Shown here piece after piece: positions 46,423-64,000 of a stretch of DNA of 64,000 nucleotides. This DNA comes from an uncultured bacterium (GTDB lineage: Bacteria > Patescibacteriota > Minisyncoccia > Phycocordibacterales > Phycocordibacteraceae), in assembly GCA_937879955.1 (NCBI GenBank), contig CALFMK010000001.1, positions 267,766 to 331,765 of the forward strand, written 5' to 3'. The notes beneath the pieces are model-generated. The model had not been told where the DNA came from, searched no databases, and saw only the letters and a list, made by a program, of their open reading frames with translations. The position numbers were made by a program, and so were the translations under genes. How positions within the stretch are numbered: the stretch's first letter is position 1; each line of letters begins with the position of its first letter.

Positions 46423-46761
46423 TTAGCCGATTAGCTCATTAACCGGCATAACCTCGATCCACGCGCCAGGAATCCCGAAGTGCGGATGATCCTTGAACAT
46501 CGCGACCGCCGCATCGAGCGAGCCTGCCTCGACGAACGAGTACATCATAATGTCGTTGCGCGCATCCTCTACTCCCTCTGCAGTGACACGCTTGGGCTTC
46601 CCGACACCCGCGGTCCCCGTGACCGTGTCCGCATGGGCCGCCATCCAGGCGTCCCAATCGGTTTTCATCGCGAGCTCCTGAGACTTCCGCTCTTCCTCAG
46701 GGAGCTGCATCCACTGATCAAGGCCCGTGTGAGGCATCTGATAGGTGACGAAGAATTTCAT
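46423..46761 (-). CDS. hypothetical protein
   Basis: 112-aa ORF, soluble, good codon usage. Confidence 0.45.
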   Translation of the reverse strand: MKFFVTYQMPHTGLDQWMQLPEEERKSQELAMKTDWDAWMAAHADTVTGTAGVGKPKRVTAEGVEDARNDIMMYSFVEAGSLDAAVAMFKDHPHFGIPGAWIEVMPVNELIG

Positions 46762-46818
46762 ATGCTTTGAGTATACAGGACCCGCATCAGACGCAACGGG
46801 CGGTGTCCGTAAACAGCC

Positions 46819-47265: not shown

Positions 47266-47284
47266 CCTCGCGAGGGAACGGCGG

Positions 47285-47857: not shown

Positions 47858-47889
47858 AGGCTCTATCGTTCAGCTAGGTAGAGAAATTC

Positions 47890-48405: not shown

Positions 48406-48428
48406 CCGGGAAGGACAGCTGGATCGGA

Positions 48429-49109: not shown

Positions 49110-49111
49110 GG

Positions 49112-50377
49112 TCAGTCTCGTCCGAGTATGGAGCTAAGGGTATTCTTGCGCACGATCATCCGGGACGGCACGTACCCGGCGAAGAGCGTCACGAGCACCA
49201 GGAGGCCGATGCGCGCGACGGTCTCTCCGAGCGGCGCCACGAGGATGCCGTCGGAGAACGGGAAATCGATCGGGTGCGCCGCGATCACGGGCGAGAGAAC
49301 GCCGTACAGGAGCAGGAAGCCGATGAGGGATCCTACGACCGCGTAGAAGATCGACTGGAAGACGTAGGAGAACTGTATCGCCTCTCCGGTGACGCCGATC
49401 CCCTTCAGGATCCCGATGAACTTCCGGCGGGTGACCGCGTTTATGAATATCACGATGAAGATGGTTATGGCCGCCACCGCGAGCCCGATGGAGCTGAACG
49501 CGGTGCCGAGCATCCCGAAGGTTGCGATCATGTCCTTCAGGAATTTCGGCTGGGCATCCTCGAACGTCTGGACGCGGGCCACGTCCCCGACCCCGTAGAG
49601 GAGGAGGCGGTCGCGCACGGCGGCCGGATCCGCCGAGTCCTTGACCGCGATGGCGATCTCCGCGACGTTCCCGTCGGTACGCCCGACGAGGCTGCGCATC
49701 TGCGAATCAGGCATGAAGGCCGAGAGGGAGACCTCGTCGACCTTCGTCTTGAGAATCCCCTTCACCACCACCTCCTTCGTGACATCGCCGACCTTGATCC
49801 GGATCTTCGAACCGACCCCGACGTCCTCGAGCGAGGTGAAGGCGGGAGACTCTATCGGTATGTACTGCTTGAGCAGGTAGTGGCCGAGCACCACCTGGTC
49901 ATAGTCTCCCGGCTCGATGAACGAGCCTTCGATCACGCTGTCGCGTATGCCGGTCACCGCATCCTCGTCGTGCGGGTCGACTCCTATGAGCTGCGCGGAC
50001 GCGGTGTTCGGCTTCTCGTCGTCGCGTCGCGTCTTGTAATTCGCCTCGAGGAGCGCGCCCGCGCGATAGCGAGGCGTGTAGGCTTCGATCTCGGGGATCT
50101 GGTCGAGGATGGCGAGCACGTTGCCCGTGTTCTCGATGTACTCCTTGTCCGAGAGCGCCGAGACCATCACGTCGGACGTGTACTTCTCGCGCGTCGCGTC
50201 CACCGCGCCCTGTATGAGGCCGACCAGGATCCCTGAGACGACGACCAGGTTTAGGAACGTCAGCACCATGACGAACACGATGAGGCCCGTCGTCCATATG
50301 CTCGCGCGCCGGAGCTGCCGGGTCGCGAGGAAGAACCCGATGCGCGCGTTGAGGCCGATCTGCCGGAGTGGTCCCAT
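49112..50377 (-). CDS. ABC transporter permease, FtsX/MacB-like
   Basis: N-terminal TM, large periplasmic domain, 3 C-terminal TM helices. Confidence 0.85.
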   Translation of the reverse strand: MGPLRQIGLNARIGFFLATRQLRRASIWTTGLIVFVMVLTFLNLVVVSGILVGLIQGAVDATREKYTSDVMVSALSDKEYIENTGNVLAILDQIPEIEAYTPRYRAGALLEANYKTRRDDEKPNTASAQLIGVDPHDEDAVTGIRDSVIEGSFIEPGDYDQVVLGHYLLKQYIPIESPAFTSLEDVGVGSKIRIKVGDVTKEVVVKGILKTKVDEVSLSAFMPDSQMRSLVGRTDGNVAEIAIAVKDSADPAAVRDRLLLYGVGDVARVQTFEDAQPKFLKDMIATFGMLGTAFSSIGLAVAAITIFIVIFINAVTRRKFIGILKGIGVTGEAIQFSYVFQSIFYAVVGSLIGFLLLYGVLSPVIAAHPIDFPFSDGILVAPLGETVARIGLLVLVTLFAGYVPSRMIVRKNTLSSILGRD

Positions 50378-50383
50378 GGGCTA

Positions 50384-51835
50384 TCAGTCGCGCAGTATCA
50401 CCACGTCCCCCTCCGCAAGGCCAGAGACGATCTCTATCTCGCCGAGCGAGGAGACGGCGCCTGTCACCACCGGGCGGCTCTCTGTCGCGTCGCCCGCCTT
50501 GACCTTCACCGATGCGGCGCCGCGCGTACGATGCACCGCGCCCTGCGGGATGCTGATAACCCCGTCTCGCTCGTCGGTCGTTATCACGATGTTCGCGGTC
50601 ATGCCGGAACGCAGGCGTTCATCCTCTTCGTCGAACTGGAGCCGGACGCGATACGTCGAGACGCCATCCCGCACGGTCTCAGATGGGTCGATAGCGATCA
50701 CGCGCGCGGCAAACGGCACGGACTCCCCGTACGCGTCGAGCGTCACGACCGCGGGATCCCCCACCTCGAGGTACGAGATGTTTATCTCGGGCACGAAGCT
50801 CTCTATCTCGAGCCCGCTCGCGCCCATGAGGCCGACGGCCGGAGTACTGAGCGATGCCGTATCCCCGACCGAACGGTCGACGAGCGTGACGATGCCGTCG
50901 AACGGCGCACGCAGGGTCCGCTTGTTGAGCGCTGCCGTGAGTCGCCTCACCTCGGCCTCCGCCGATGCGAGCGCCGCATCGGCGATCGTCGGCCCCTGCG
51001 AGCGGCTCTTGATCTCCGCCTGCGCCTCTTCGATGACGCGCGTCCGTTCGCGGAGCGCTTCCTGATAGGCATTGTAGCTCGCGAGATACGACGCGCTCTT
51101 CGGATTAGGGATCTCGACCCTCCAGCTCGTGTCCCGGTAGTCGGTGAGCGGGCTCGTGAAGGTGACGTAGAGGCCCTTCGTGCCGAGCGGCGTCGGCCCG
51201 GTCTTCGAGATGCGCACCGCGCCGGTCCTCTCGAGCCCGAAGACGTAGAGGTCGTACGTTCCCGGATTAGGCGCGCGCGCCACGCTGAGGCGATAGGTCC
51301 CTTCCGCGCCGCCTTCGTAGATGCCCGTGATGACGGGAGGGTCGGCCGCATAGGTGCTCGACTCGGCGACCGCCGCCAGGTCGGTGGAGAGGAGCGTGCG
51401 GTACGCACTCTCGACCTTCGTGTCCTGCTCGCTCGTTATCTCCTCGAGGCTCGCGCCCTGGCTCGCCCGCTCGGCGCGGCGACGCGTCACGTCAGCCTGC
51501 GCCGAGGCGAGCTGGGCCCTGAGCTCGTCCGAGGCGAGCTCGATGAGCGGATCGCCTTTCGACACGGCGTCCCCCACCGCCACGTGCACGCGCGAGACGC
51601 GTCCGGTATCCTCGAACGTCATCTCGACCTCGTCGAGCGCCTTCACCTTCCCGGAGACCGATACCTCCTGCACGAACGGCTTTCGCGTTACCGTGAGGAC
51701 CTCCTGCGTAGCGGGCCTGTTCCAGAACGCGGCGGCGAGCGCGCCGCCGGACAGCAGCACGAGCACGGCGAGAGCGGCCTTCCAGTGCGCACGGAACGCG
51801 CGCTTCACGGCATCGAAGAGGGTGTCAGGGGTCAT
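50384..51835 (-). CDS. HlyD-family periplasmic adaptor (MacA-like)
   Basis: N-terminal TM, coiled coils, beta-barrel domain; first gene of the hlyD-ftsX-ABC operon. Confidence 0.8.
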   Translation of the reverse strand: MTPDTLFDAVKRAFRAHWKAALAVLVLLSGGALAAAFWNRPATQEVLTVTRKPFVQEVSVSGKVKALDEVEMTFEDTGRVSRVHVAVGDAVSKGDPLIELASDELRAQLASAQADVTRRRAERASQGASLEEITSEQDTKVESAYRTLLSTDLAAVAESSTYAADPPVITGIYEGGAEGTYRLSVARAPNPGTYDLYVFGLERTGAVRISKTGPTPLGTKGLYVTFTSPLTDYRDTSWRVEIPNPKSASYLASYNAYQEALRERTRVIEEAQAEIKSRSQGPTIADAALASAEAEVRRLTAALNKRTLRAPFDGIVTLVDRSVGDTASLSTPAVGLMGASGLEIESFVPEINISYLEVGDPAVVTLDAYGESVPFAARVIAIDPSETVRDGVSTYRVRLQFDEEDERLRSGMTANIVITTDERDGVISIPQGAVHRTRGAASVKVKAGDATESRPVVTGAVSSLGEIEIVSGLAEGDVVILRD

Positions 51836-51909
51836 AGCGTGACCTCAGTCTAGCATCCGAGATGCGTGCAGACCCCCGCAGAGACTGCGCTCATTGCGGA
51901 AACGGGCGG

Positions 51910-52317
51910 CTACCCGAGCAACAGTCCGCACACGACCGCACCGACCCAGCCGATAACCGAGACCGAGCCGCTCACGAGGAGAAGATTCCTCTTGGCCTTG
52001 GGCACGTCCTTGAACTCCGTCGTTGCCGCAACGTTCACGAGCGACCCTATGAGGAGGCCGTTCACGGTAAGGGCCGCGACGAAGGCCATCTTCATGAGGA
52101 ACGTCGGATCACCGAGGAATCCCGGCTCGTCGATGAGCATCAGTCCTCCGGTCAGGATGATGCCGGCGAGCCCGAGGCTCACGATCACATGGAGCAGGTC
52201 GAGCTTCTTCTTGCTGAGCGTCTTCTGCCTGCCGCGGAACCACTCGAAGCCCTGCTCGTCCGAATAGACGACAGCGAGCCCGGTGACGATGATGAGGATG
52301 ACGTGGAACGTGACCAT
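51910..52317 (-). CDS. integral membrane protein (hypothetical)
   Basis: 135 aa, 4 TM helices. Confidence 0.5.
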   Translation of the reverse strand: MVTFHVILIIVTGLAVVYSDEQGFEWFRGRQKTLSKKKLDLLHVIVSLGLAGIILTGGLMLIDEPGFLGDPTFLMKMAFVAALTVNGLLIGSLVNVAATTEFKDVPKAKRNLLLVSGSVSVIGWVGAVVCGLLLG

Positions 52318-52319
52318 GG

Positions 52320-52784
52320 CTAGGAGGCGAGGGTTCCGATAAGGAAGGAGGCGAGCTCGCGCTCGGGCCGCGCCTGCCCTCCATGCTGATCATCGAACGC
52401 AGCCGTGCCATCGACTCCGCAGAGACGGAGGATCGCGCTCTTCCCTCCCGGATGCTTCGAGATCCAGGACGTGAGGTCGTACACCTTGCCGCCGATAGCG
52501 GTCCAGCAGCTCGACGCACCCGCATGGGCGGCGACCTGCGCCATGGTGTAGCCCGACGAGGCGGGCGGCGGCGTGCTTGCGGGCGGCTTCGCGGGAGCGC
52601 TGTCCGCAGGAGACGTCTTCGGACTGTCCGGGGTAGCATCTGCGCTCGACGTGGCCGCGCTTTCAGCAGCCTCAGAAATCTCCGGCGACGGCAGAGACTT
52701 AGGCTCAGGGCCCTTGGCAAGATAGACGCCGCCGAGTATTCCGGCGACGATAACGAGTGCTATGGGAAATATATGCTTCATCAT
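52320..52784 (-). CDS. cytochrome b5-like heme-binding domain protein, membrane anchored
   Basis: N-terminal TM, Pro/Ala/Ser-rich linker, C-terminal YTMAQVAAH..CWTAIGGKVYDLT.WISKHPGG. Confidence 0.65.
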   Translation of the reverse strand: MMKHIFPIALVIVAGILGGVYLAKGPEPKSLPSPEISEAAESAATSSADATPDSPKTSPADSAPAKPPASTPPPASSGYTMAQVAAHAGASSCWTAIGGKVYDLTSWISKHPGGKSAILRLCGVDGTAAFDDQHGGQARPERELASFLIGTLAS

Positions 52785-52850
52785 AGGGGCTATAGGTTGG
52801 GTGGTATGCGAGGTCTTCCTCCATACTATGCCGTTCGCCCCGTCTTACTT

Positions 52851-53339
52851 TCAGAAAGGATCGTCAGGGCCGTCCCTCGTCTCACGCACCGCCTGGTAGA
52901 GCGTCGTATCGTGGGCGAGGTAGTAGTGGATCGCGTGACCCACATCGAATGCCGCGAACACGGCGCCGAGAACGAGGGTGGCGCCTGCCAGGGCGAGTAC
53001 GGCTACGAACGTCCTGTACGCGTATATCGCATGCGCCCTCTTCAAGGTGAGATACGCGCTCAGTACGGACAGGATGAACAGGAGAAGCCATGCGACAGGC
53101 GCCCCCTCGAGTATCCCGCGTATGGGCGATGCGATAAGGGCTTCTGAACTTGAACCCTCCGTATCGAAGAAGACGTAGGCGGCGACAGAGAGGGCGACGG
53201 CGCCGACGCATACCGAGAGCGTGGCGAGGGTCCAGAAGACCCCTCGTCGCACAAGGAAATACCAGAACGGGCGGGGTGTTATTCCCCGATCCCGGATCTC
53301 GCGCATCACGTCCTTAGAAAAGTCATCCATCGTTTCCAT
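52851..53339 (-). CDS. putative anti-sigma factor (membrane protein cotranscribed with ECF sigma)
   Basis: starts 1 nt after the sigma-factor stop codon; cytoplasmic N-terminus followed by 4 TM helices. Confidence 0.45.
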   Translation of the reverse strand: METMDDFSKDVMREIRDRGITPRPFWYFLVRRGVFWTLATLSVCVGAVALSVAAYVFFDTEGSSSEALIASPIRGILEGAPVAWLLLFILSVLSAYLTLKRAHAIYAYRTFVAVLALAGATLVLGAVFAAFDVGHAIHYYLAHDTTLYQAVRETRDGPDDPF

Positions 53340-53340
53340 A

Positions 53341-53907
53341 CTATACGCCTGCTATGTTCATTCCTCTCAGGATCTTCTCGAGAGCGGCCTTGCCTCGCGC
53401 TATGTGCGTCGCGACCGTCCCCGGAGCCATCTCCAGGATATCCGATATCTCCTGATAGCTCTTCCCCTCGAAGAATCGAAGCACGAGCGTCTCTCGGTAC
53501 TCGGGCTTGAGACGCTGCAGCGCCGTGGCGACATGCACGCTCCGGAGCCTCGCATCGCTCTCTGCCGTGATATCGAACGCGTCCGGGATGGACGCGAACA
53601 ACGTAAGGGCATCCTCGCTCGCAAAGGCGTGCGCGCGATTCCGCATGTATCGGATATGCATCATCGCCTCGTTGTGCGCGATCCTGTAGATCCAGGAACT
53701 GAACGGCAGCGAGGGATTGTAATCGTTGAGATTCAGGTAGACCTTGATGAACGATTCCTGGAGGATGTCCTTCGTCGTGTCGGCGTCGAACGCTCCGAAC
53801 CGCTGGATATATCTCGATACCGGCTTTCGATAACGATCGATGATGGCCGAGAACGCTTCGGGATCTTGTATGGCCGCACGCACTGCTTCCTGATCCGAGA
53901 TCTCCAT
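53341..53907 (-). CDS. RNA polymerase sigma-70 factor, ECF subfamily
   Basis: regions 2 and 4 (..SWIYRIAHNEAM.., ..YRETLVLRFFEGKSYQEISDILEMAPGTVATHIARGK..). Confidence 0.85.
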   Translation of the reverse strand: MEISDQEAVRAAIQDPEAFSAIIDRYRKPVSRYIQRFGAFDADTTKDILQESFIKVYLNLNDYNPSLPFSSWIYRIAHNEAMMHIRYMRNRAHAFASEDALTLFASIPDAFDITAESDARLRSVHVATALQRLKPEYRETLVLRFFEGKSYQEISDILEMAPGTVATHIARGKAALEKILRGMNIAGV

Positions 53908-54031
53908 TTCCCTATTCTACATTTTTTCTCGCACACAGGGCCGGCGGCCACGAATGCGGCCAAGGATGGACAGGTTCAGAGCAATTGACTGGAAAGGGCT
54001 TGCGCAAGAAACGTATCGGCTGATTCGTGAT

Positions 54032-55930
54032 TTACCACCACACAGAGAGCCCTGCAGCCTTCATCTTGGCACGTGTAATCGGTCCGAAGTATCCGATTGA
54101 AGGATTCACGCCATGGGCTGCCTGGTATTTCGCAAGCGCATTCTTCGTCAGCGTACCGAAGAAGTTCGTTTCGTTGCCTGCACTGCCGACGCCAGTTTCC
54201 GAGAGCTTGAAGCCATTTGCATTAAGCAACTTCTGGAGATTGCGCACGTCCTCCCCGGCCATACCCAACTCAAGATCACGGACGCCTTCCGCCCCGTTCG
54301 CTCCGGTGACCGTTGAACCAGTCGTACCGAACAGGTTTGGCCACTGGGTTTTGAGTACGTCCGCCGCTGCCGCATTGCCCATATCCATAAGACTCTTCAC
54401 CTGTGCCTGTACCGAACCTCCGGAGCGGGAACGCGGCCGTGATTCAGGCTCTGGATCTGATGTGGGGTCTTCCTCTTCTTCAGGCGTACACGCACTCGTA
54501 TCGAAGGTCTGGTCTGACCCCGTAGTCGTACCCACGCTATTTACTGCATACGCGGCATAATGATAGGTCGTCTCGCAGTAAAGCTCCGTGACCACGGCCG
54601 TATATGCGCCCGTACCGAAGCTTCCCGATTCCGTTGTCGTGGCACCGTATGCCGTACTATCGCCGTATACGAACCCTCGCACCGTCGGAGTCTGGGTGCC
54701 GAGATCCGTTATGGTTCCATTCAGCGTTACGCTCGATTCCCCTGCTGAGGATGCTGCCTGCGTAGTGACCATAGGGGCGGACGGCACGATCGAATACGAC
54801 ACGACCGCAAGCTTATTGGCCTGCGACTGATCCCGGAATGCCGCATAGGGAGTCCCTGCAGAATCAAAGGCAAGCGTAGTGTACCGAGCGACATCGGTAG
54901 AGAATCCCGCTGTGCCCACACTGATCCAGCTGCTGCCGTCGTATTTCCGTACGCTCGTCTTAGAGCTGTTGCCACCGTCCTGGAAAATAGCATACGGCGT
55001 GGTGCTGCCGTTCGGGAACGTGATATTGGTAAAAGCTGCAGCACCGCTCGTAAATCCAGCTGATCCGACAGTATCCCAGCTCGATCCATTGAACTTGAGG
55101 GCCGTTGCCTTATCGCTATTCCCGCCATCCTGGAAAATGAGATACGGTGTAGTACTGCCCGTCGGGAACGCTATGTGCGTACCATATGCCGTACCTACAG
55201 ATAAATCGGTGGCCCCAGCCCCCACCCAGCTCCCACCAGAGAATCCCATGACCGTAGCCTTGCCGCCGCTTGCGGCATTGCTGAATGCTACGTACATCGT
55301 ATCGTTGTCTGATATTGCGAGAGAGAGGTAGTCTGCAGAATCCGGAGAGAACCCTTCAACGCCGAGCGCCCCCCAAGAGGTTCCGTCATATCTCATTACT
55401 GTTGCCTTATTGCCGTTCGCTTCATCTTCATACGCGACAACAGGCCTCCCGAGCGAATCGAAGGCCAGGGATATGAAACCAGCGCCCCCCGCCGAGAATC
55501 CCACAGCGCCCACCGCGACCCAACTACTACCGTTGTACTTCATAACGGTGGCCTTGCTGCCGTTAGCTTCATCTCGATATGCTACGTACGGTGTGGTGCT
55601 GCCTGCAGGAAACGCAAGGGACGTGTATATTACGCCGCCAGCAGAGAACCCAGTACTTCCGACTGCGACCCAATTGCTACCGTTGTACTTCAGTACAGTT
55701 GCCTTCCCGCTATTAGCCACATCTACGAAAGCCACGTACGGCGTGGTGCTGCCTGTAGGGATTGCGATGGAGGTATATACGGCTGCATCTGAAGTGATGC
55801 CTGCCGCGCCGACATTCTGCCAGGCATACGAGACCGCGAGCGCAGACGATGGGAATAAAAATGATATGGCAACTATCGCTGCAACTGGCAATGATGTCAG
55901 TGGTCTTAGGGAGAGTCCTTGTTTCTTCAT
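54032..55930 (-). CDS. secreted repeat protein (7 x ~50-aa beta-propeller-like repeats) with C-terminal peptidoglycan-binding domain
   Basis: start at MKKQGLSLRPLTSLPVAAIVAISFLFPSSALA (signal peptide); repeats GFS.G.A.YTSLAFP.GSTTPYVA..D.ANGSKATV.KYNGSSWV.VG; PG_binding_1-like C-terminus (DVRNLQKLLNANGF..AKYQAAHG). Confidence 0.7.
   Translation of the reverse strand: MKKQGLSLRPLTSLPVAAIVAISFLFPSSALAVSYAWQNVGAAGITSDAAVYTSIAIPTGSTTPYVAFVDVANSGKATVLKYNGSNWVAVGSTGFSAGGVIYTSLAFPAGSTTPYVAYRDEANGSKATVMKYNGSSWVAVGAVGFSAGGAGFISLAFDSLGRPVVAYEDEANGNKATVMRYDGTSWGALGVEGFSPDSADYLSLAISDNDTMYVAFSNAASGGKATVMGFSGGSWVGAGATDLSVGTAYGTHIAFPTGSTTPYLIFQDGGNSDKATALKFNGSSWDTVGSAGFTSGAAAFTNITFPNGSTTPYAIFQDGGNSSKTSVRKYDGSSWISVGTAGFSTDVARYTTLAFDSAGTPYAAFRDQSQANKLAVVSYSIVPSAPMVTTQAASSAGESSVTLNGTITDLGTQTPTVRGFVYGDSTAYGATTTESGSFGTGAYTAVVTELYCETTYHYAAYAVNSVGTTTGSDQTFDTSACTPEEEEDPTSDPEPESRPRSRSGGSVQAQVKSLMDMGNAAAADVLKTQWPNLFGTTGSTVTGANGAEGVRDLELGMAGEDVRNLQKLLNANGFKLSETGVGSAGNETNFFGTLTKNALAKYQAAHGVNPSIGYFGPITRAKMKAAGLSVWW
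54740..55775. repeat. intragenic tandem repeats (~150-bp unit x ~7, diverged)
   Basis: seen at protein and DNA level inside 54032..55930. Confidence 0.5.
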
Positions 55931-56247
55931 GAAGTAACTGTAGCCCAGCTCTTTTACTTTTCTTGAAGGGGGGGGTGTTAATAGCGAATAGCTCACGAGC
56001 CTTGAAAGGTTTATGTCTTTACCATGCGGAACTTTACAGTCGCCGACAGATCAGTGACACAAGTACGCTTTAAGACTCCGTATCAGATACCTGCCCAGAC
56101 GCCTGAAAACGCCGAGCTCTCAACAATGCTGGCCGTCTCGTGTTAGAACCCTGGTCGGTCAAGCCCTGCTTAGTCCGTTTAGCTCCCTTCTAGGTTATCG
56201 AAACGACGCGTCTCGTGCGCTTCAAAAAGTGACAAAAGTGACAGTCC

Positions 56248-56835
56248 CTAGGCTTCATCAATATACTTCTCCAGCATTCTCTTTTTGGCCGCCTCAAGAG
56301 CTTCTGGAGTTGTAAGGATCTCAGGATAACGATAAATCATTCCTCCCTTTGAACGATCGAAAGCTCTTAGGTACTGATCTAGGTAAATCTGAGGGTTTAT
56401 ATAAATTACACCTCCCTCCTTCTTCCAGCCTTCGGACATATCGAAGTTATAGCCGATTTCGTGTCCTGCAACATTGAGCCAGCGATGAGCGATTACATTT
56501 CGCCATTCGTGTATTTCTGAAGCTATTGTTGAGAACTTCTTATCATCAGGATCACCGTCCATATCCATGTAGATCTGAACAAACTTCCTGTATCCCTTTT
56601 GACCGTCTTTTCCAAAAAAGCCATGAGAAATAGTAAGGGCAACTGAATGCACTCCTAGAAACATCAGTGACGTCTGACGATTATTTGGATTATCGAAAGT
56701 CGCTGCGATTTCATTATTAAAGAAATTTTGTATGGAGCCTAGTAGAGACTCAATTATTTCGACAGGTTCACTTTTCTGGAATCGATCCGTTCTATGCTCC
56801 CTGGTCTCATTCATATGCGCGTTGTTTTGAGACAT
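56248..56835 (-). CDS. HEPN-like domain protein (Abi_2/AbiD-like RNxxAH motif), putative RNase effector
   Basis: motif SEIHEWRNVIAHRW (R-x4-H with N after R); last gene of a five-gene operon; ~40% GC. Confidence 0.4.
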   Translation of the reverse strand: MSQNNAHMNETREHRTDRFQKSEPVEIIESLLGSIQNFFNNEIAATFDNPNNRQTSLMFLGVHSVALTISHGFFGKDGQKGYRKFVQIYMDMDGDPDDKKFSTIASEIHEWRNVIAHRWLNVAGHEIGYNFDMSEGWKKEGGVIYINPQIYLDQYLRAFDRSKGGMIYRYPEILTTPEALEAAKKRMLEKYIDEA

Positions 56836-56840
56836 ATGTT

Positions 56841-57404
56841 TTATTGATAAACGCAAAGTCCATTGATTATCGGATTAATGACACTGTATATCTGCCAGAT
56901 AAATAGTGAGATCAGCGCTCCGTAAGTGAGGAGGACGAGCCATGAATGCTTGTTGCCGTTCATTTCCTTAAACAACGGGATCATCCCTTTCTGTCGCCAC
57001 TCCTCTTTTGCTTGCTTGTCTCCAAACAGTTCCTTGTACAGAGATCGCACAAACTGCACCCCGATGTAAATGAAACCGAAGCCAACGAGCGTCATTAGTG
57101 AGTCGTTAGCTACCCTATCCACTTCTGGAAGTCCGCAATATGATTGCCCGATAAACAGAATGAAGCTCAACCCAACGCTCGCTACCAATAGCGAACGAAA
57201 GACGCTGTATCCGGCGACAAACCAAAGCGCCGAAAAGAAAATACCAAATACGACTACGAACATCACTGGCGTGACTGCCGAAAGGAACTGTGTGTTGATC
57301 AGGAAGAACGTCGCCAGGGCAACTGCCATTAGAAAAATTAGGAAGGTCTTTTGGTTCTTTCCTTCTATCCCCAGTTTTTGTAAGAACCTCTTGAACCACC
57401 CCAT
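56841..57404 (-). CDS. 4-TM membrane protein (hypothetical), operon with TIR/SLATT-like genes
   Basis: 187 aa; 4-nt gap to upstream gene. Confidence 0.5.
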   Translation of the reverse strand: MGWFKRFLQKLGIEGKNQKTFLIFLMAVALATFFLINTQFLSAVTPVMFVVVFGIFFSALWFVAGYSVFRSLLVASVGLSFILFIGQSYCGLPEVDRVANDSLMTLVGFGFIYIGVQFVRSLYKELFGDKQAKEEWRQKGMIPLFKEMNGNKHSWLVLLTYGALISLFIWQIYSVINPIINGLCVYQ

Positions 57405-57408
57405 GGAT

Positions 57409-58239
57409 CTAGACGAGGGCCATTAACTGCAACATAAACCCTATGGTGATGAGTGTTGCTCCAATCACACCCCACTTTCTCTGCCCAAGACGGTCTTGAA
57501 CTTGAGGTAACTTTAAATTCTCTTCATCTGTACTACCAGACCAGCGAGATAGTCCGAGTCTAATGGCTTCCTTTTTAGAGATAAAAAGACCCTTCGCAAA
57601 AGCGAGACTGCCCAAGAAGGTCAGGGCGAGGCCAAGAATATTCAGGTAACTATCGATACCCACCGGCACTATCATTGGCGGAATATTTCCTGATATGAGA
57701 GACCAGGGAATGACTGAGGCGGCCAGCGCAATGTAAATTGCAATAAAGATTTTAGGGACATGAAGCTCAATATGACTGAATGGCCAATACACCTTCTTAT
57801 CCTCTCCACGCCCAAGCATCTCCCACTCAGTGTCATATAAAGCAAGCGGCAAGCGCTTCTCTATCATGTGAACCACCTTAAACTTCGCACTATTCAACCC
57901 TTTATACGAAGCAATGATTCTGTACCAAAGGTAGCAGACCGTAACGCCTGCAACTGAAGAGGCTGCTAGTATTAGGCCAATCTCTTGCTCGTTTGTCTTG
58001 GTGGCAACAAAACCCAACAGTGCAACAAGTGCAGTATTCAACCCCAGAAAGAATTCGTTCGTTTTTTGTCTACGATCACTGATTTTCTCAGTGGCATTAA
58101 TATAAATTTTGTATTGGTCCAAGAGATGCTCAATGTATCTATCGCCGTACTGCTCGGACGCAGATACAAAGAGCATCTTTTCTACATCTTGCTTTTCCTT
58201 GTTCATATATTTAAGCAAGCTCGCGAATACCCGAGACAA
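57409..58239 (-). CDS. SLATT-like multi-TM putative pore-forming effector protein
   Basis: 276 aa; ~60-aa cytoplasmic N-terminal helix, TM hairpin (FFLGLNTALVALLGFVA / IGLILAASSVAGVTVCYLWYRII), amphipathic region and 3 further TM helices; overlaps or abuts upstream TIR-like gene. Confidence 0.5.
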   Translation of the reverse strand: MSRVFASLLKYMNKEKQDVEKMLFVSASEQYGDRYIEHLLDQYKIYINATEKISDRRQKTNEFFLGLNTALVALLGFVATKTNEQEIGLILAASSVAGVTVCYLWYRIIASYKGLNSAKFKVVHMIEKRLPLALYDTEWEMLGRGEDKKVYWPFSHIELHVPKIFIAIYIALAASVIPWSLISGNIPPMIVPVGIDSYLNILGLALTFLGSLAFAKGLFISKKEAIRLGLSRWSGSTDEENLKLPQVQDRLGQRKWGVIGATLITIGFMLQLMALV

Positions 58240-58618
58240 TGGAACTGGTATTCCACTTCACTATCTTGTCGGCATACTTCTTTACAGTCAGAGAAGTTCT
58301 CTCGCTTGCCCAGGGCTCAATTGCAAGAATCGGCTTTGGATTTGTGAATCCCTGAGCAATTGCAATTTCCTTGTTGATCCAAGTACTGTAAGTCGAGTAC
58401 ACGCCAGCAAGAATAATAATCACGTCACAGAAGCGCATTTGCTCTTGAATTGCACGTGATAGCGCAGCTGAGCTGGGTGCATTGTGAATTGGGTCATTCT
58501 TTGGGACGGAGTAGTTCCTGAAGTTAAATCGCGGATCAGCGTTGAGCATTTTTACAAGCTTCTCGTACGCATCGCCGTATGCCCAAGAATGGCTAATGAA
58601 AATGTTGTAGTGGCGCAT
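58211..58618 (-). CDS. TIR-like domain protein (DUF1863/ThsB-like)
   Basis: 135 aa; YNIFISHSW..D.Y..L...L...P.F.F.NYSVP..DPIH...S.ALS.AI..QM..CDVIIILAGVYSTYSTWINKEI. Confidence 0.6.
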   Translation of the reverse strand: MRHYNIFISHSWAYGDAYEKLVKMLNADPRFNFRNYSVPKNDPIHNAPSSAALSRAIQEQMRFCDVIIILAGVYSTYSTWINKEIAIAQGFTNPKPILAIEPWASERTSLTVKKYADKIVKWNTSSIVSGIRELA

Positions 58619-58623
58619 GCAAC

Positions 58624-58995
58624 TTAAAGATTATTAATAAATGCTCTGATATTGTCCCAGCTCCAAAGATTCACTCGCTTTGTGCTAAGTGGGTATGGCA
58701 AGATGGGCCTATCACTACTTGAATACATCAGCATCATCGGTATCCCTTCCTCTTCTGCGGCCCTTATTTCAAAAAGCTGTCCAGTCGCCGAAGGTGTGTG
58801 CTTACTGATTAGCGCAATGACACCATCACACCCCTTGATACGTGACCGACACTTGACCTCCCAATCAGTCTCCCATGGCTGCTTCACAGACATATCCACG
58901 AATTCGAATGGAGAATTCTCGTTCCTTGCCTGGCCAACAAGAAAATCTCTTGAGCGAACATCTTCAATTGCAAATGCAATGAAAATTCTTTTCAT
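58624..58995 (-). CDS. TIR-like domain protein (DUF1863/ThsB-like), first gene of operon
   Basis: 123 aa; KRIFIAFAIEDVRSRDFLVGQARNENSPFEFVDMSV..CDGVIALISKHTPSATGQLFEI..A.EEGIP; AAGGAG 12 nt upstream of ATG. Confidence 0.6.
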   Translation of the reverse strand: MKRIFIAFAIEDVRSRDFLVGQARNENSPFEFVDMSVKQPWETDWEVKCRSRIKGCDGVIALISKHTPSATGQLFEIRAAEEEGIPMMLMYSSSDRPILPYPLSTKRVNLWSWDNIRAFINNL

Positions 58996-59203
58996 GAGGA
59001 AAGTATGAACTCCTTCCAGGAAAAAGCAAACAACACATTTTAGAAATAATCCAGGAAAACTTTAGATTTTCTTTAGATAATCCTACTTATCCCCTTGCAT
59101 GGAATTCTCATCTTGCTAGGGTTAACTAGTTAACCAAGCTCTGAATACCTGCTGGTAGAAGGTATTCGCAAACGACTAACTTACACAGTTAATATGTTTT
59201 GTC

Positions 59204-60478
59204 ATGAGCAAACTATCTTGGACTACGGTCCAAAAGCGGGTGAACGACCTCGTTCCCCAAGAAGTTAATCCCCGTTCTATTACCGACCATCAGATGGCGG
59301 ATCTTAAGCGAAGTCTTAAGAAGTACAACTTAGTAGAGATTCCAGCCATTGATGCCAATGGCAAAATTCTCGCAGGGCACCAACGTATCAAAGCCCTCCA
59401 GCTTCTTGGTAGAGGCGATGAGCTGATAGACGTGCGCTTCCCTTCTCGAAAGCTCACCAAACTAGAGTCAGAAGAGTATCTCATAGCCTCTAACAAGCTT
59501 GGCGGTGATTGGGACTTTGATCTTCTAAAGTCGTTTGATCTAGGTACTCTGGAATTCGCAGGATTTGACCAGATCGAGATTGCAGAGATATGGGACAAAG
59601 ATAAGGAAGTAAAAGACGACGAGTTCGATATAGAGAAGGAACTCAAGCAAATTAAGAAGCCAAAGACTAAGCTTGGAGACGTAATCACTCTAGGCCACCA
59701 TAGAATCCTCTGCGGAGACTCGACCAAATCCGAGAACCTTAAGCGGCTCCTGGGCAATCAGAAGGCTTCAATGATCTACTCCGACCCTGTCTATAATCTC
59801 GACATCAATTATGACGGTGGGGTTAGCGGGAATAAGGAGTACGGTGGCAAGGTAAACGATTCTCGCTCCTTCGAGGAATATCGAACCTTCCTGAGAGACA
59901 GTATGGAAGCGGCACTAGCCGTGTCCTCGAAAGATACCCATGTCTTCTACTGGTGCGATCAGGTATATATCGGCGTGGTTCAGGAAATTTATCGAGCGCT
60001 CGGCATAGCTAATAAACGAGTGTGTCTCTGGCTCAAGAACAACCACAACCCAGTCCCTAGTGTGGCGTTCAACAAGGTATACGAGCCAGTAGTGTACGGA
60101 GTTCGTGGAAAGCCTTATTTAGCTGACACCATGCAGAATCTGAATGAGGTCATGAACAAGGAGATGAGCTCAGGGAATGACCTACTTGATGAAGTAGATG
60201 TCTGGACTGCAAAGCGTCTTTCAGCGAAAGACTATGAGCACGCCACCTCTAAGCCGCCTCAGCTCCACGAGCGAGCCATTAAGCGCTGCACGAAGCCAGG
60301 AGACATCATCCTTGATAGCTTCCTTGGATCAGGCAGTACGCTTATAGCCGGAGAGTCACTCGGTCGCAAGGTTTACGGCTGCGAGCTTGAACCGCAGTTC
60401 TGTGATCTTATCGTACGTAGGTACGAGAAGATGACAGGTAAGAAAGCAGTGTATGAAAAAGACCAAAGCACTGCTTGA
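59204..60478 (+). CDS. ParB-like nuclease domain / DNA methyltransferase (N6-adenine/N4-cytosine, beta class) fusion protein
   Basis: N-terminal ParB/Srx motif (IPAIDANGKILAGHQRIKALQ), catalytic (D/S)PP(Y/F)-type motif SDPVYN, C-terminal AdoMet motif FLGSGST. Confidence 0.85.
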   Translation: MSKLSWTTVQKRVNDLVPQEVNPRSITDHQMADLKRSLKKYNLVEIPAIDANGKILAGHQRIKALQLLGRGDELIDVRFPSRKLTKLESEEYLIASNKLGGDWDFDLLKSFDLGTLEFAGFDQIEIAEIWDKDKEVKDDEFDIEKELKQIKKPKTKLGDVITLGHHRILCGDSTKSENLKRLLGNQKASMIYSDPVYNLDINYDGGVSGNKEYGGKVNDSRSFEEYRTFLRDSMEAALAVSSKDTHVFYWCDQVYIGVVQEIYRALGIANKRVCLWLKNNHNPVPSVAFNKVYEPVVYGVRGKPYLADTMQNLNEVMNKEMSSGNDLLDEVDVWTAKRLSAKDYEHATSKPPQLHERAIKRCTKPGDIILDSFLGSGSTLIAGESLGRKVYGCELEPQFCDLIVRRYEKMTGKKAVYEKDQSTA

Positions 60479-61037
60479 TAGGCTTGTAGAAGAACTCGAG
60501 AAAACTCCACTGATCCAAATTGCTTGCGACAAAGTCGGTATTTCCAGAAACACCTTCTATCGCTGGATGAAGGAGGACGAGGACTTTCTCGCTCGTGTTA
60601 ATGAAGCCGTATCACTAGGTACGGGTCTTGTTAGTGACGTGGCCATAAGCAACGTACTGGAAGGCATCAAGAAGAAAGATGCCATGTATACGAAGTACTG
60701 GCTAAGCCACAAACATCCTGACTTCCGGCGACCATATGTTCATAGGATCGATGCAGATGATCTCCTTCTACACTCTCGCCTTCTTGCTGAAGGAGCTCAG
60801 AAACATAAGGTTGAGCAACAGATAGCGAATTCACGCGGGTACATCGATGAAGAGATGTCACGGAGACAGGAAGCAGAAGTCGATGACTTTATGGAGAAGT
60901 GGGATCACATCGTAGCCAAGGGAGACGAAGAACGCGCCAAAGTCTTATTCGAGAAGTGGAAGAAGGAATACGAGACTCAAGTGCCAGACACTCCTCCACC
61001 CGACAATAAGAAGCCTCGTAAGAAGAACTGGCGATAA
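60453..61037 (+). CDS. HTH-domain protein, possible phage terminase small subunit (TerS-like)
   Basis: N-terminal HTH (IACDKVGISRNTFYRWMKEDEDF), charged C-terminus; sits downstream of ParB-MTase as in phage packaging modules. Confidence 0.45.
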   Translation: MKKTKALLDRLVEELEKTPLIQIACDKVGISRNTFYRWMKEDEDFLARVNEAVSLGTGLVSDVAISNVLEGIKKKDAMYTKYWLSHKHPDFRRPYVHRIDADDLLLHSRLLAEGAQKHKVEQQIANSRGYIDEEMSRRQEAEVDDFMEKWDHIVAKGDEERAKVLFEKWKKEYETQVPDTPPPDNKKPRKKNWR

Positions 61038-61280
61038 TTATTCTTTCACTTGATCTGCAAGAAGCTTCTTCCCTACTGGAGAATCAACCGGGATCATATT
61101 TGTTGATCCGCAAACTGGGCATGCCTTATGTCGAGAAGTTGATCTCCAAATGGAATAGATGATTCCTGGAATAATGAAGCAGAGGAATAGAACTATCTCT
61201 ATCAACATACTTCCCTTAATTGCCGTACGAGGATTACCTACGTGTCCGCACGATGCACAAATCATTTCTTGCTTAGCCAT
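61038..61280 (-). CDS. zinc-ribbon membrane protein (hypothetical)
   Basis: 80 aa; CxxC...TM...CPVC arrangement. Confidence 0.45.
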   Translation of the reverse strand: MAKQEMICASCGHVGNPRTAIKGSMLIEIVLFLCFIIPGIIYSIWRSTSRHKACPVCGSTNMIPVDSPVGKKLLADQVKE

Positions 61281-61283
61281 TTT

Positions 61284-61430
61284 GTTGTTGGTTCGGTTTT
61301 GTAATTCCCGATGGCCAGATACACAAAAATCCCGCCACCAGGAGGACCCTTACGGGTATCCCTACCTAAGTTTCCCTAGGTAACCGAACCAACGACCCTG
61401 ATGACGGGGTTTTTACGTTGGTTCGGATTT
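61284..61430. repeat. iteron-like short repeats (GTTGGTTCGG x2 direct at 61287 and 61417; inverted copy at 61384) in a 334-bp intergenic region
   Basis: read directly; lies between divergent genes upstream of the integrase module. Confidence 0.35.
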
Positions 61431-61614
61431 TCGGCCATATCCTTTGGAAACCAAAGGGGTTAGGCCATTTTTATTCAATTGTAGACAGGTTCCCCTGCCA
61501 TCTTCTGATGGTATCGCAGTTCTTAGAGTTTGCTAAGCCTGTCCACGACCATGCGACGAATCCATAGTTCTGCATAGACTATGCACCGGCCACCAGTCTG
61601 GCATCAATTAATAG

Positions 61615-61917
61615 GTGGAGGACAGGGACGTAATCTTAGATAAAGCAGCCCATTACCGTTTTACGAAAGAAGCCGATAGTGCCTACCTGAACAGGATCTC
61701 CCTACTCCCAAATTCCAAGAAGGACTTGAAACGAGCGATCCTTGAAAGGATTGAAGAATTGATAGTTTCCTATAGCTCTCTTGCTACATACGTACCAGAC
61801 GAGTTGATCGATTGGCTCAATACGCACCAAGGTACGGACAGGAGCCGGAAAGTCTATCTACGTGTAATCCGAGATATTGAACGACTTCGATCCGAAGCCG
61901 TAAGTAAATTGAAATAA
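61615..61917 (+). CDS. hypothetical protein, translationally coupled to the integrase (4-nt gap)
   Basis: 100-aa ORF, low GC. Confidence 0.45.
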   Translation: MEDRDVILDKAAHYRFTKEADSAYLNRISLLPNSKKDLKRAILERIEELIVSYSSLATYVPDELIDWLNTHQGTDRSRKVYLRVIRDIERLRSEAVSKLK

Positions 61918-61921
61918 CTAT

Positions 61922-63241
61922 ATGCAAACTTTAGAAACCTCACAGATAGGGTTATCGCCCGTCATTATTGAAGAGAAAGTCAAATACTGTTTGTACGCTC
62001 GTAAATCTACCGAGTCCGACGAGAAGCAAGCTCTTTCGATAGATTCCCAGATTAAGGAAATGCTCCAGATTGCCGAGCGAGAGAATCTGGAAATTGTCGA
62101 TATTCGGAGAGAATCTCACTCGGCCAAGGATTCAGGACAGCGACCGGTCTACCAGGAACTTTTAGAGGACATTCGAAGAGGACGATTCAATGCAGTACTA
62201 ACTTGGGCACCTGATCGGTTAAGTAGAAACGCTGGCGACTTAGGAACGCTCGTAGATCTGATGGATCAGAAGCTGCTTCTTGAGATCCGTACCTATGGGC
62301 AACACTTCAGAAACTCCCCTAACGAGAAATTCCTCCTGATGATTCTCTGCTCCCAAGCCAAGCTCGAAAACGATAATAAAAGCATTAACGTAAAGAGAGG
62401 TTTGAAAACGCGCGTAGAAATGGGGCTTTGGCCAAGCCGAGCGCCAACGGGATACCTGAACGAGAAACGAATGGATAGGAAATGCGAGAGTATTCTCGAC
62501 CCAGACAGGGCGATGATAATTAAGAAAATGTTTGAGAAGGTTGCATACGAGAAGTGGAGCGGACGAAAGGTGTATAACTGGCTGAAATTCGAGCTTAACT
62601 TTAAGACCGCTGCCGGCAACAAAAATCTTAGTCTCGGAAATATCTTTAGCATTCTCGAGAATCATTTCTACTACGGGGTCTTTGAGTACCCGAAAAACTC
62701 TGGACGGTGGTATCAAGGGAAACATGAACCACTTATCTCTAAGGAGCTATTTGATCAAGTTCAAGCTCAAATGAAAAGCCAGGTTGTTCGTTCAGAGAGT
62801 AAGGAATTTGCGTTCACGCGTCTTATGGAATGTGGGATGTGCGGTTCAGGTGTTACTGCTGACGAGAAGTTTAAAAAGCAAAAGAATGGAAATATCCATC
62901 GACACGTTTATTACAGCTGTACGAGGTCTAAAGATAGAAATTGTAAGAATGGCTACCTAAACGAAGAAGTTCTTATCGAGCAGTTCGTACAGCTCATGGA
63001 TACTATTGATATCGATGAGATCGGTATTAAAGAAAAGATAAAGGCCGAAGTGGGACGATTCAAAAAGTTCCAACAGTCAGTCCTCGGGGTTACGGAAAAA
63101 GCTGAGGTGAAAGATGTAGATATACGGAACTATGCAAAATACTTATTACGGGAAGGGGTTAGTACAGAGAAACGAGAACTACTTGGTTGTTTAAAAAGCA
63201 GAATAGTCTTACAAGACAAAGAAATCGCACTAAAACCTTAG
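61922..63241 (+). CDS. large serine recombinase (resolvase-domain integrase)
   Basis: catalytic Ser region YARKSTESDEKQALSIDSQ, recombinase domain, Cys-rich zinc-ribbon (CGMCGS..YYSCTRSKDRNC), C-terminal coiled coil. Confidence 0.9.
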   Translation: MQTLETSQIGLSPVIIEEKVKYCLYARKSTESDEKQALSIDSQIKEMLQIAERENLEIVDIRRESHSAKDSGQRPVYQELLEDIRRGRFNAVLTWAPDRLSRNAGDLGTLVDLMDQKLLLEIRTYGQHFRNSPNEKFLLMILCSQAKLENDNKSINVKRGLKTRVEMGLWPSRAPTGYLNEKRMDRKCESILDPDRAMIIKKMFEKVAYEKWSGRKVYNWLKFELNFKTAAGNKNLSLGNIFSILENHFYYGVFEYPKNSGRWYQGKHEPLISKELFDQVQAQMKSQVVRSESKEFAFTRLMECGMCGSGVTADEKFKKQKNGNIHRHVYYSCTRSKDRNCKNGYLNEEVLIEQFVQLMDTIDIDEIGIKEKIKAEVGRFKKFQQSVLGVTEKAEVKDVDIRNYAKYLLREGVSTEKRELLGCLKSRIVLQDKEIALKP

Positions 63242-63954
63242 AGAGGATTTGTTGCCCCGCGAACCTCGAAGTGTAAATGAGAGCCAGTTGATTTGCCCGT
63301 GCTGCCTACATATCCGATAACCTCTCCTTTATTTACGGAACCTCCTGAGACGGCAAGTGAGGACATGTGCGCGTACAGAGTCTGTGCGCCTCCTCCATGC
63401 TCGATAACGATGTAGTTTCCGTATCCTCCGTTGTAACCTCCGCCACCTTTGGCGATGATAACGGTGCCTCCTGCCGATGCGTAGATAGGATCTCCCGTCT
63501 CTCCATCAATATCTACGGCGTTGTATCCATGATTAGCCTGCGTGATAGCGCCGCCCGGAAGCGGGTTCCCGAACTTTCCTGTAGAACCCGTGCTGTTTGA
63601 TTTCGTTGCTGAAGCTGCGGACTTCTTGGTAGTGCCGGTGCTTGCGACCTTCTTAGGAGTAGATGAGAACGCGCCTCCAGGGACGACTATCTCTGCTCCT
63701 GCCTTTAGCCCCGCACCCTCATCAATACCGTTATAGAGCGCAATATCAGACACGTCAGAGCCATATTTCTTAGCGATAGACTGGAGTGTTTCTCCCGAAA
63801 CTACTTTGTGCTGAACGCCTGATACGGGAAGAATGATAAGCTCGTCGCCTATGCGAATAGTGCTAGCATCACGAATATCATTCGCCCAGAGGATGGTGTT
63901 GCTTGATACGCCGTGTTCCTCGGCAATTTCAGAAAGCGAATCGCCTTCTTTCAC
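63238..63954 (-). CDS. M23 family peptidase with LysM domains (5' end beyond window)
   Basis: LysM repeats (GDSLSEIAEEHGVS.., GETLQSIAKKYG..), M23 motifs HGYNAVD, GYVGSTGKSTGSHLHFEV; ORF open to the window edge. Confidence 0.85.
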   Translation of the reverse strand: MKEGDSLSEIAEEHGVSSNTILWANDIRDASTIRIGDELIILPVSGVQHKVVSGETLQSIAKKYGSDVSDIALYNGIDEGAGLKAGAEIVVPGGAFSSTPKKVASTGTTKKSAASATKSNSTGSTGKFGNPLPGGAITQANHGYNAVDIDGETGDPIYASAGGTVIIAKGGGGYNGGYGNYIVIEHGGGAQTLYAHMSSLAVSGGSVNKGEVIGYVGSTGKSTGSHLHFEVRGATNPL

Positions 63955-64000
63955 GGTGTAGAGGGAAATTCCCGACTTCTTCGGCTTTGCAGTGTTTGAG

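Follow-up and report, generated by a model that had tools for sequence, protein, structure and literature searches.

Phage-inducible chromosomal islands (PICIs) and Staphylococcus aureus pathogenicity islands (SaPIs) are site-specific islands with an integrase, often a repressor, and the small-terminase gene terS; they have no capsid or tail genes and frequently carry anti-phage systems. Capsid-forming PICIs (cf-PICIs) have their own terS and large-terminase gene terL, which makes packaging of their DNA independent of a helper terminase, and they encode capsid, portal, protease and head-tail connectors and borrow tails only. Other mobile DNA, such as the phiC31, Bxb1, A118 and SPbeta prophages and the ccr-carrying SCCmec (SCC, staphylococcal cassette chromosome), is moved by large three-domain serine recombinases through short attachment (att) sites made of inverted half-sites around a 2-bp core, and SCC elements accrete in tandem arrays. 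As a rule it is tyrosine integrases that target tRNA genes, and serine integrases seldom do so; tycheposons, which integrate at tRNA 3' ends, use tyrosine recombinases and are not known to have a methylase-terS-terL backbone. Here we describe an island at the right-hand end of a 64,000-nucleotide stretch (the window, throughout) of contig CALFMK010000001.1 from an uncultured member of the Patescibacteria. It carries a large serine integrase gene (int), a TerS-like gene, a fusion of a ParB-like nuclease with a DNA methyltransferase (the methylase), a defence-like operon and a LOOT RNA, and we compare it with these known systems.

The low-GC stretch of the window is a recently acquired mobile island that belongs to a family widespread in Patescibacteria. 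The G+C (GC) content is mostly 0.60-0.69 over positions 1-53000, drops to 0.53-0.58 between 53000 and 56000 and is 0.41-0.51 in the remainder of the window, which bears out the fall in GC claimed in a preliminary description of this DNA; the left compositional break lies at 56.1 kb, and the right one is visible only in two relatives, L140 and L216. From 56119 to 64000 the window shares 99.6% identity with L001, a contig of 27 kb obtained from a different sample, and since the left flank of L001 is unrelated, the same DNA is found in two genomic contexts, as is characteristic of genomic islands in general. Together with the domain searches, this identity supports the earlier view of an integrated, horizontally acquired element with a serine integrase, TerS-like and ParB-methyltransferase genes, defence cargo and no structural genes. 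Of the borders proposed at that time, the left edge stands and corresponds to a left attachment site (attL), while the right edge at int does not, as the identity to L001 runs on. The zone at 54-56 kb had also been counted to the element, and here the earlier view has to be corrected: because the intermediate-GC DNA at 53-56 kb aligns with L134, a contig of a closely related strain (98.1% alignment identity over 43352-53920, 79.8% over 54029-55351), it is host chromosome. It encodes a sigma factor and a 654-aa surface protein, and the left part of the window carries the genes of LepA, MurJ, GroEL and RNase J.

Relatives of the integrase were found in at least 529 stretches when one genome per species was scanned, nearly all of them metagenome-assembled genomes (MAGs) of Patescibacteria, with 64-83% identity among the best 80 of these; IMG/VR adds 51 related contigs, classed there as viral. 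The backbone genes were followed in 133 loci, where the methylase is present in 95, terS in 86 and terL (roughly 490 aa) in 77, always in the order methylase, terS, terL, int on one strand, with the methylase always 5' of terS. A LexA-like S24 repressor occurs in 22 related loci. The 19 elements for which both ends are available measure 2.9-19.3 kb, mostly 9-19 kb, and the smallest complete ones consist of int and one or two genes. Since tblastn across the whole window detects neither terL nor the LexA-like repressor (nor a second integrase remnant), the window copy is a variant without repressor and without the terL that members of the family usually possess. Recurrent accessory genes are the repressor, type I restriction-modification, reverse transcriptase, OLD-type ATPase, PLD-SNF2 and superfamily 1 (SF1) helicases, DUF2779, cyclic-oligonucleotide-based anti-phage signalling (CBASS), TIR proteins and copper/thiol genes; the helicase matches in relatives belong to defence-type proteins. 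We found no description of this integrase family, or of integrative elements of Patescibacteria, in the searchable literature.

Two relatives show how such an island looks when it is complete. The closest one, L216, lies on a 622-kb NCBI contig of a Candidatus Paceibacterota MAG, is 86% identical in its backbone to window positions 59212-63221 and is likewise without terL; it extends over 13.0 kb from attL at 1229 to tRNA-Gln(ttg) at 14276-14349, and the GC content, 41-50% up to this tRNA, is 59-65% behind it, where dnaX, dus, serS and dprA are encoded. L140, read as the reverse complement, consists of a high-GC flank, the left end, CBASS cargo, methylase, terS, terL, int, the LysM-M23 peptidase gene (M23) with a metal cluster, the conserved right-end motif, a minus-strand tRNA-Gln(ttg) and again a high-GC flank; the element has 19.2 kb and its host 64-66% GC. 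At the other extreme, the minimal members L014, L021, L032, L043 and L058 carry the left-end motifs, int and one or two genes, and reach the tRNA after 2.9-3.7 kb; among these five, homology is limited to the left end plus int (about -247 to +1320 relative to the int start; 79-89% nucleotide identity). Two integrase copies of the family were seen on L089/L095, L110/L111, L112/L113, L131/L132, L027/L039 and L061, as would be expected if elements inserted in tandem or at several tRNA genes of the same genome.

The att sites were reconstructed by comparison of about 30 attL and about 50 right-end (attR) sequences. The conserved left end was found in about 38 loci, and in about 30 it reads, after the flank, GC-N7-CTCGTG-TTAGAACC, then a motif C and then a motif B. 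Right ends carry either the palindrome CTCGTGCTAGCACGA followed by N2-4 or its split form CGTCTCGTGCGCGATAACCTAGCACGAG, and a minus-strand tRNA gene adjoins them immediately with its 3' end. Among the 57 loci whose sequence continues for 11 kb or more past the int start, such a tRNA closes the right end in 39 (18 Ser, 14 Gln, 3 Trp, 2 Glu, 1 Asn and 1 Asp), the first downstream tRNA is on the plus strand in none of the 57, and all left flanks combined hold only 8 tRNAs. The association of the right end with tRNA genes is not due to chance.

When the element-side halves are joined, the reconstructed attP is CACGAG-N5-(TG or GG)-N5-CTCGTG, that is, 6-bp inverted repeats 5 nt to each side of a core that lies within the tRNA acceptor stem. 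Four observations support this form of attP. The arms co-vary between lineages (CTCAAG/CTTGAG in L039 vs CACGAG/CTCGTG elsewhere), the nucleotides after the conserved GC agree with the local tRNA (TG at Gln sites, GG at Ser/Trp sites), and the place occupied by TTCGAACC in the tRNA, 13 nt from the GC, is taken by TTAGAACC in the element arm. Verbatim, the predicted attP also forms the junction of tandem units in L002, after the metal cluster, and in L220, a contig of the Joint Genome Institute (JGI). In the window, the host-side arm of attL (CTCAAC-AATGC) resembles the element arm CACGAG-TTGGC, as expected of the attB half-site of a serine integrase. The family thus has the att sites of large serine recombinases, short, with half-sites inverted about a central dinucleotide and with hybrid element ends; of these this copy shows attL only. 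Integration at a tRNA by the serine integrase is well supported by these comparisons, and by analogy with the relatives the target of the window copy is probably tRNA-Gln. Its right-end motif is predicted to be CGTCTCG(A/T)GCGCGATAACCTA(G/T)CACGAGTTGGC, followed by TG and the minus-strand tRNA-Gln, the attP of the excised form would be CACGAGTTGGC-TG-GCCGTCTCGTGTTAGAACC, and the attB, i.e., the healed tRNA-Gln, would be CTCAACAATGC-TG-GGAGAC. At the tRNA end of the tandem array of L220 stands a cassette of 1.7 kb that has three genes, lacks int and lies between att-like sites, which suggests mobilisation in trans and accretion, as in arrays of SCC or of cis-mobilizable elements (CIMEs). We also considered that motif A of the left end could be a tRNA fragment; ARAGORN and Rfam detect no tRNA there, and it is better read as a T-arm-like recombinase arm.

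Because the right-end att site abuts the tRNA, all DNA between int and the tRNA lies inside the element. In the preliminary description the segment ended at int, whose stop codon overlaps convergently that of the M23 gene, taken to be chromosomal. The overlap itself was confirmed; the chromosomal assignment of M23 was not borne out, in view of its low GC and of the 99.6% DNA identity with L001 that runs through it. From int to base 64000 the GC content stays at 0.46-0.51. The source contig (591 kb) encodes M23, a 602-aa P-type ATPase, DsbA, DsbB and a second DsbA, known from exact-sequence look-ups by presence only, their positions on the contig not having been seen; the three Dsb proteins are identical to those encoded after M23 in L001, and the ATPase is identical to that of L140. 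The int-M23 arrangement recurs in L007, L135-L139 and L140. The island therefore continues past int into M23 and beyond the window end, with M23 as the first cargo gene between int and the right end.

A right end at the int stop had been suggested by the loss of pairwise homology there and by variation of the last 0-5 int codons. It is ruled out by the window-L001 identity through M23 and by the right-end motif found beside a tRNA 0.1-9 kb further on, and it is also countered by the attP-like junction after the metal cluster of L002. The int stop marks a breakpoint of cargo exchange and not an end of the element. The 3' end of M23 as the integration target, to which the identical stop overlap in L007 pointed, was rejected on the same evidence. 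An exact-match scan of JGI metagenomes with the last 30 nt of the window gave no match, and no direct or inverted repeat of the left end (14 nt, at most 1 mismatch) occurs elsewhere in L001. In L001 the region 12583-21320, shared with L135 and L140, is a copper/thiol cluster of two P-type ATPases, DsbA, DsbB, DUF305, cupredoxin, HMA-DsbD and a CsoR-like repressor. The cluster is 100% identical between L001 and L135, while beside it the 5' part of int is 80-91% identical and the left cargo unrelated, which shows very recent modular exchange inside the element.

The packaging genes resemble those of phages. The family terL matches PHROG 38 (E 3e-82) and Terminase_6C, and 15 terL sequences have 72 invariant columns, GSGKS and DD motifs among these. 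The element terLs form a clade with 36-55% identity among themselves, and the nearest true phage terLs (L149-L153) are 36-39% identical to them; remaining phage terLs are at most 31% identical (one partial match 32-34%). In these five phages methylase, terS and terL are followed by portal-MuF and HK97-type capsid genes, in L151 with portal and capsid directly after terL. Among the top 25 PHROG families no portal or capsid family was present, either for 73 proteins (at least 200 aa) of complete elements or for 111 proteins of IMG/VR loci; one protein in these bulk scans matched a "tail protein" family. The ten open reading frames (ORFs) of 56248-63241 have no Pfam or PHROGs match to capsid, portal or tail, and a tblastn search of the window for terL was negative, in agreement with the earlier statement that terL, capsid and tail genes are lacking. 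We found no primase, replicase or helicase family among the element genes of the window in Pfam and PHROGs. Judging from synteny, the backbone packaging module is probably phage-derived and kept intact without a morphogenesis module. The window copy and the family scans thus share with PICIs the presence of terS and the lack of virion structural genes, the primase/replicase-origin (ori) module of PICIs has no counterpart among the window genes, and the head, tail and lysis modules of a prophage were found neither in the window copy nor in the family scans.

Taken together, we read the window as containing the left 7.9 kb of a mobile island that sits in a tRNA 3' end of a Patescibacteria chromosome with 65% GC and spreads in the manner of a satellite, and we give this explanation as a whole a probability of about 0.6. 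The integrase would recombine attP CACGAG-N5-TG-N5-CTCGTG with an attB spanning the tRNA acceptor end; the element-side arm would copy the tRNA T-arm, and the element would supply a new tRNA 3' end, leaving the tRNA intact. The methylase-terS-terL module would derive from siphovirus-like phages, and the excised circle would be packaged into helper-phage capsids by means of terS, mostly with terL, as in a phage satellite. This last step, the spread of the circle in helper-phage procapsids, we hold to be slightly short of an even chance. The methylase may protect the element DNA in a new host, and in some members the LexA-like repressor may couple induction to damage or infection. The window copy would have lost terL and the repressor and would obtain the large terminase in trans from a helper or a sister element, like those PICIs that have terS alone. 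Defence and metal-handling genes would be swapped at slots to the left of the methylase, on either side of int and next to the LOOT RNA. Cargo is exchanged at three places, and units accrete in tandem via attP-like junctions.

Several points weigh against this explanation. No excised circle, empty site or virion-associated copy was observed, no helper phage was identified, no replication module was detected, and the attP pattern is absent from IMG/VR. The exact crossover dinucleotide is deduced by comparison, the right end of the window copy lies outside the window and is placed by source-contig protein look-ups and by relatives, and the bulk PHROG scans list the top 25 families only, so that weak structural matches could be hidden. 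Moreover, int-only minimal members of about 3 kb occur in several genomes and the terL-less window variant has also moved recently; because such members spread as well, the packaging module is not needed in cis for spread. The same facts speak for an island moved by its serine integrase and generic DNA uptake (transformation, vesicles or other), whose methylase, terS and terL do not package it and are phage baggage or have another role, such as phage interference or protection from restriction: int-only elements have the same ends in several species, the terL-less variant is 99.6% identical in two genomic contexts, L220 holds int-less units between att-like sites, no replication module was found, and the competence gene dprA lies in the host flank of L216. 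Against such a view, full-length terL (77/133) and terS (86/133) stand beside int in many lineages, their retention and the 72 invariant columns in 15 terLs argue for selection on function, and the module is syntenic with the packaging modules of true phages; we consider it unlikely, while giving it real weight.

The preliminary description had left the choice between a PICI-like satellite and a decayed prophage. A prophage remnant, immobile and retaining int, terS and methylase by chance, would agree with a window copy devoid of terL, repressor and structural genes and with the 51 related contigs that IMG/VR classes as viral, and yet the same capsid-less architecture with intact ends is shared by more than 100 loci, different genomes harbour near-identical copies, the attP-like tandem junctions speak of recent recombinase activity, and 0 of 19 end-to-end elements have room for, or matches to, a morphogenesis module. 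We regard decay as improbable. Because the same backbone is found in more than 100 loci, with intact terS-terL beside int in 77 of 133 and no portal or capsid match in the family scans, a satellite-like island is favoured over prophage decay; this half of the earlier proposal is supported, and membership in the PICIs is not established. As the element is a multi-genome repeat of more than 99% identity, a classic source of chimeras, and as the right flank of the source contig was not read, an assembly that joined a 65%-GC genome to a roughly 50%-GC genome via a shared element copy also has to be weighed. It is very improbable in our judgement, since host DNA meets the element at a well-formed attL that includes a host-side arm, islands of this type with cargo after int are embedded in the high-GC hosts of L140 and L216 and closed there by a tRNA, and the differences between the window copy and L001 (about 0.4%) are scattered over the length of the copy. 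Finally, the recombinase had been held to be an integrase and not a resolvase or invertase of a local invertible segment, and the att sites at a tRNA gene and the near-identical copies in different genomes agree with this. PHROG 125 "DNA invertase" also matches the N-terminal catalytic domain, but the protein has the full large-serine-recombinase architecture with Recombinase and zinc-ribbon domains, the ends are 3-19 kb apart and at tRNA genes, and no inverted-repeat pair surrounds a local segment, so we give practically no credence to a local invertase.

The features of the window copy, with further copies of two of them in relatives, are collected in Table 1. ORF and domain searches confirmed the placement in the preliminary description of int, the small ORF before it, the zinc-ribbon, TerS-like and ParB-methyltransferase genes and the operon, as well as the 334-bp intergenic gap, which lies at 61281-61614. 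All three Pfam domains of the integrase are past their cut-offs, PHROG 95 (integrase) is matched at E 7.7e-61, and its translation has the catalytic-type motif YARKS (R27, S29), so that the protein has the three domains and the catalytic serine of a large serine recombinase. The methylase fusion matches Pfam N6_N4_Mtase (E 2.8e-31), PHROG 498 (E 2e-87) and, in its ParB-like part, PHROG 620 (E 5e-23); homologues of the TerS-like protein stand directly 5' of terL in the family. Motif B is on the plus strand in 38 scanned loci as well as in the window, and lies left of int wherever int was mapped, apart from L002, where it is in the second tandem unit; a promoter-like site is predicted to start at 56238. 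The box upstream of int, compared with the left-end sequences of L014, L021, L032, L043, L058 and L071, stands 40-90 nt 5' of the int start codon in minimal elements. The 100-aa ORF belongs to a family of 10 clusters (73-100% identity, no Pfam domain) and is directly 5' of int in all fetched loci that have it (L001, L036, L135-L139, L216-L219). No excisionase-type match was obtained in the window, and one possibility is that this ORF is a candidate recombination directionality factor.

Table 1. Positions of the features of the window copy and of further LOOT RNA copies and tandem junctions in relatives.
Feature	Position	Strand	Remarks
attL	56119..56150	+	host-side arm CTCAAC-AATGC; core TG 56130-56131; junction with the L001 flank here
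attL element-side arm			GCCGT-CTCGTG-TTAGAACC; GC-N7-CTCGTG-TTAGAACC layout in about 30 loci
Conserved left-end block	56132..56243	+	motifs A, C, B
Motif A	up to about 56170		within left-end block
Motif C, CGACGCGTCTCGTGCG	56204-56219		within left-end block
Motif B, AAAAAGTGACAAAAGTGACA	56224-56243		candidate promoter/operator
Cargo gene, no family match	56248..56856	-	195-202 aa; last in minus-strand operon; identical in L001
Cargo membrane protein, 187 aa	56841..57404	-	relatives in L019 (64%) and L010 (38%); 12 cluster members in public data
8xMP-family membrane protein	57409..58239	-	Pfam PF24838, E 2.3e-42; start at 58206 by gene callers
ThsB-type TIR protein, 135 aa	58211..58618	-	Pfam ThsB_TIR E 1.3e-16; PADLOC ThsB E 1.5e-12
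Second, divergent ThsB-type TIR protein, 123 aa	58624..58995	-	ThsB_TIR E 3.3e-4 (barely past cut-off); PADLOC ThsB E 1.8e-3
ParB-like nuclease domain + N6/N4 DNA methyltransferase fusion	59204..60478	+	first gene of the backbone packaging module
Small-terminase-like helix-turn-helix protein, 194 aa	60453..61037	+	Pfam Sf6_terminase 28 bits (cut-off 27); PHROG 4102 E 4.6e-9
Zinc-ribbon/membrane protein, 80 aa	61038..61280	-	variable slot downstream of LOOT RNA
LOOT RNA (Rfam RF03000)	61344..61466	-	full length
Conserved box upstream of int	61545..61585	+	ATGCGACGAATCC-TAGTTCTGCATAGACT
100-aa ORF coupled to int	61615..61917	+	ends 4 nt before int; no Pfam domain
Large serine integrase, 439 aa	61922..63241	+	Pfam Resolvase PF00239, Recombinase PF07508, Zn_ribbon_recom PF13408
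LysM-M23 peptidase gene	63238..64000	-	clipped by window end; GC 0.46-0.51; 99.2% aa identity to L001
Further LOOT RNA copy, L135	9415-9540	-	
Further LOOT RNA copy, L140	13521-13635	+	
Further LOOT RNA copies, 45 more loci			
attP-like tandem junction, L002	about 5545-5575		+5470 from int
attP-like tandem junction, L220	2377-2408	-	

The intergenic gap before int holds a LOOT RNA, which matches the model over all its positions (1-121 of 121) with 81.2 bits (gathering score 46.4; E 1.2e-14). Its long stem has the GTTGGTTCGG repeats as arms, which explains why the preliminary description called this gap repeat-rich. No function is known for LOOT RNA, no paper on its biology was found in literature searches, and Rfam files it as a small RNA (sRNA) gene; in the present family it is linked to mobile DNA and lies no more than about 300 nt from the gene of a serine integrase. 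With a covariance model built from 14 copies, in whose alignment covarying stems are visible, LOOT copies next to this integrase were found in 48 sources, nearly always in one of two places, either 5' of int by 150-300 nt and on the other strand, or shortly after int and on its strand. In about 30 of 41 loci examined, a co-directional and highly variable ORF, mostly without family assignment, begins 40-80 nt after the RNA; in the window this is the zinc-ribbon gene, on the same strand after a gap of 63 nt. LOOT RNA may serve a cargo slot as its leader or regulator and not stand alone as an sRNA, and the island family supplies a genomic context for this orphan RNA.

Five closely packed genes form the minus-strand operon at 56248-58995, and their products are two ThsB-type TIR proteins, 8xMP, a second membrane protein and one protein without a match. 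With its two ThsB-type proteins beside a candidate effector it is similar to Thoeris; unlike Thoeris it has no ThsA, neither of the SIR2-SLOG nor of the Macro-TM type, and the neighbours are 8xMP and two unassigned proteins. No PADLOC model of ThsA matches any neighbouring gene, so that of the Thoeris pair ThsB and ThsA only the former is found here. As no ThsA-type effector is present, 8xMP may be the candidate effector of a Thoeris-like system; a solved-structure search gave no match for this protein, and no paper on 8xMP was found in literature searches. The trio of TIR123, TIR135 and 8xMP was also seen in L046 (2161-4717) with 78-89% aa identity, where int is only 68% identical, and it moves as a unit between elements of different backbone.

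On the host side of attL, the gene at 54032-55996 (minus strand) encodes the 654-aa secreted repeat protein, with a C-terminal peptidoglycan-binding-like domain, and its GC content is below that of its neighbours. Its nucleotide identity to L134 (79.8%, vs 98.1% for the neighbouring DNA) makes it look like a fast-evolving surface protein beside the integration site. At the same place the L001 and L134 contigs carry large surface-protein genes or are broken, and the empty site was not found in the close relative L134, whose contig stops inside the surface-protein gene. Other local GC dips (0.49-0.56) at 20000-22000, 27000-28000 and 33000-34000 of the window, within a chromosome of 0.62-0.69, may be other acquired segments.

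The genomes of Patescibacteria are tiny, and an island family with defined ends offers a handle on the exchange of defence and metal-handling genes among them. The serine integrase, with its predictable and nearly universal target at the tRNA acceptor/T-arm end, could possibly be used as a genetic tool in a group that is very hard to manipulate. It is tempting to hypothesize that these elements are "terminase-only" satellites throughout the Patescibacteria, i.e., serine-integrase islands that enter tRNA genes by an att arm resembling the T-arm, with their own terS and terL, no capsid gene, procapsids stolen from helper phages and a hypervariable slot controlled by LOOT, which serve as the main vehicle of defence and metal genes across GC distances; we offer this wider picture as speculative, and as a whole it is doubtful.

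Compared with PICIs and SaPIs, the family has a similar size, site-specific integration and carriage of anti-phage systems, and the window copy, like many PICIs, has terS only; it differs by using a serine and not a tyrosine integrase, by its tRNA target, by its Patescibacteria hosts and by the lack of a detected primase/replicase-ori module, and most members encode their own terL together with the ParB-methylase. Possession of both terS and terL is shared with cf-PICIs, while the capsid and portal genes of the latter have no match in the family. With the large-serine-recombinase elements the family shares the recombinase, the layout of the att sites and tandem accretion, whereas its target is the acceptor/T-arm end of tRNAs (Gln, Ser, Trp, Glu, Asp, Asn), one arm mimics the T-arm, and no recombination directionality factor was recognised in it. 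The likeness to tycheposons lies in integration at tRNA 3' ends, modular and fast-changing cargo, tandem arrays and suspected transfer in particles. If packaging works as proposed, these islands would represent a satellite strategy between the PICIs, with terS only, and the cf-PICIs, with a full capsid.

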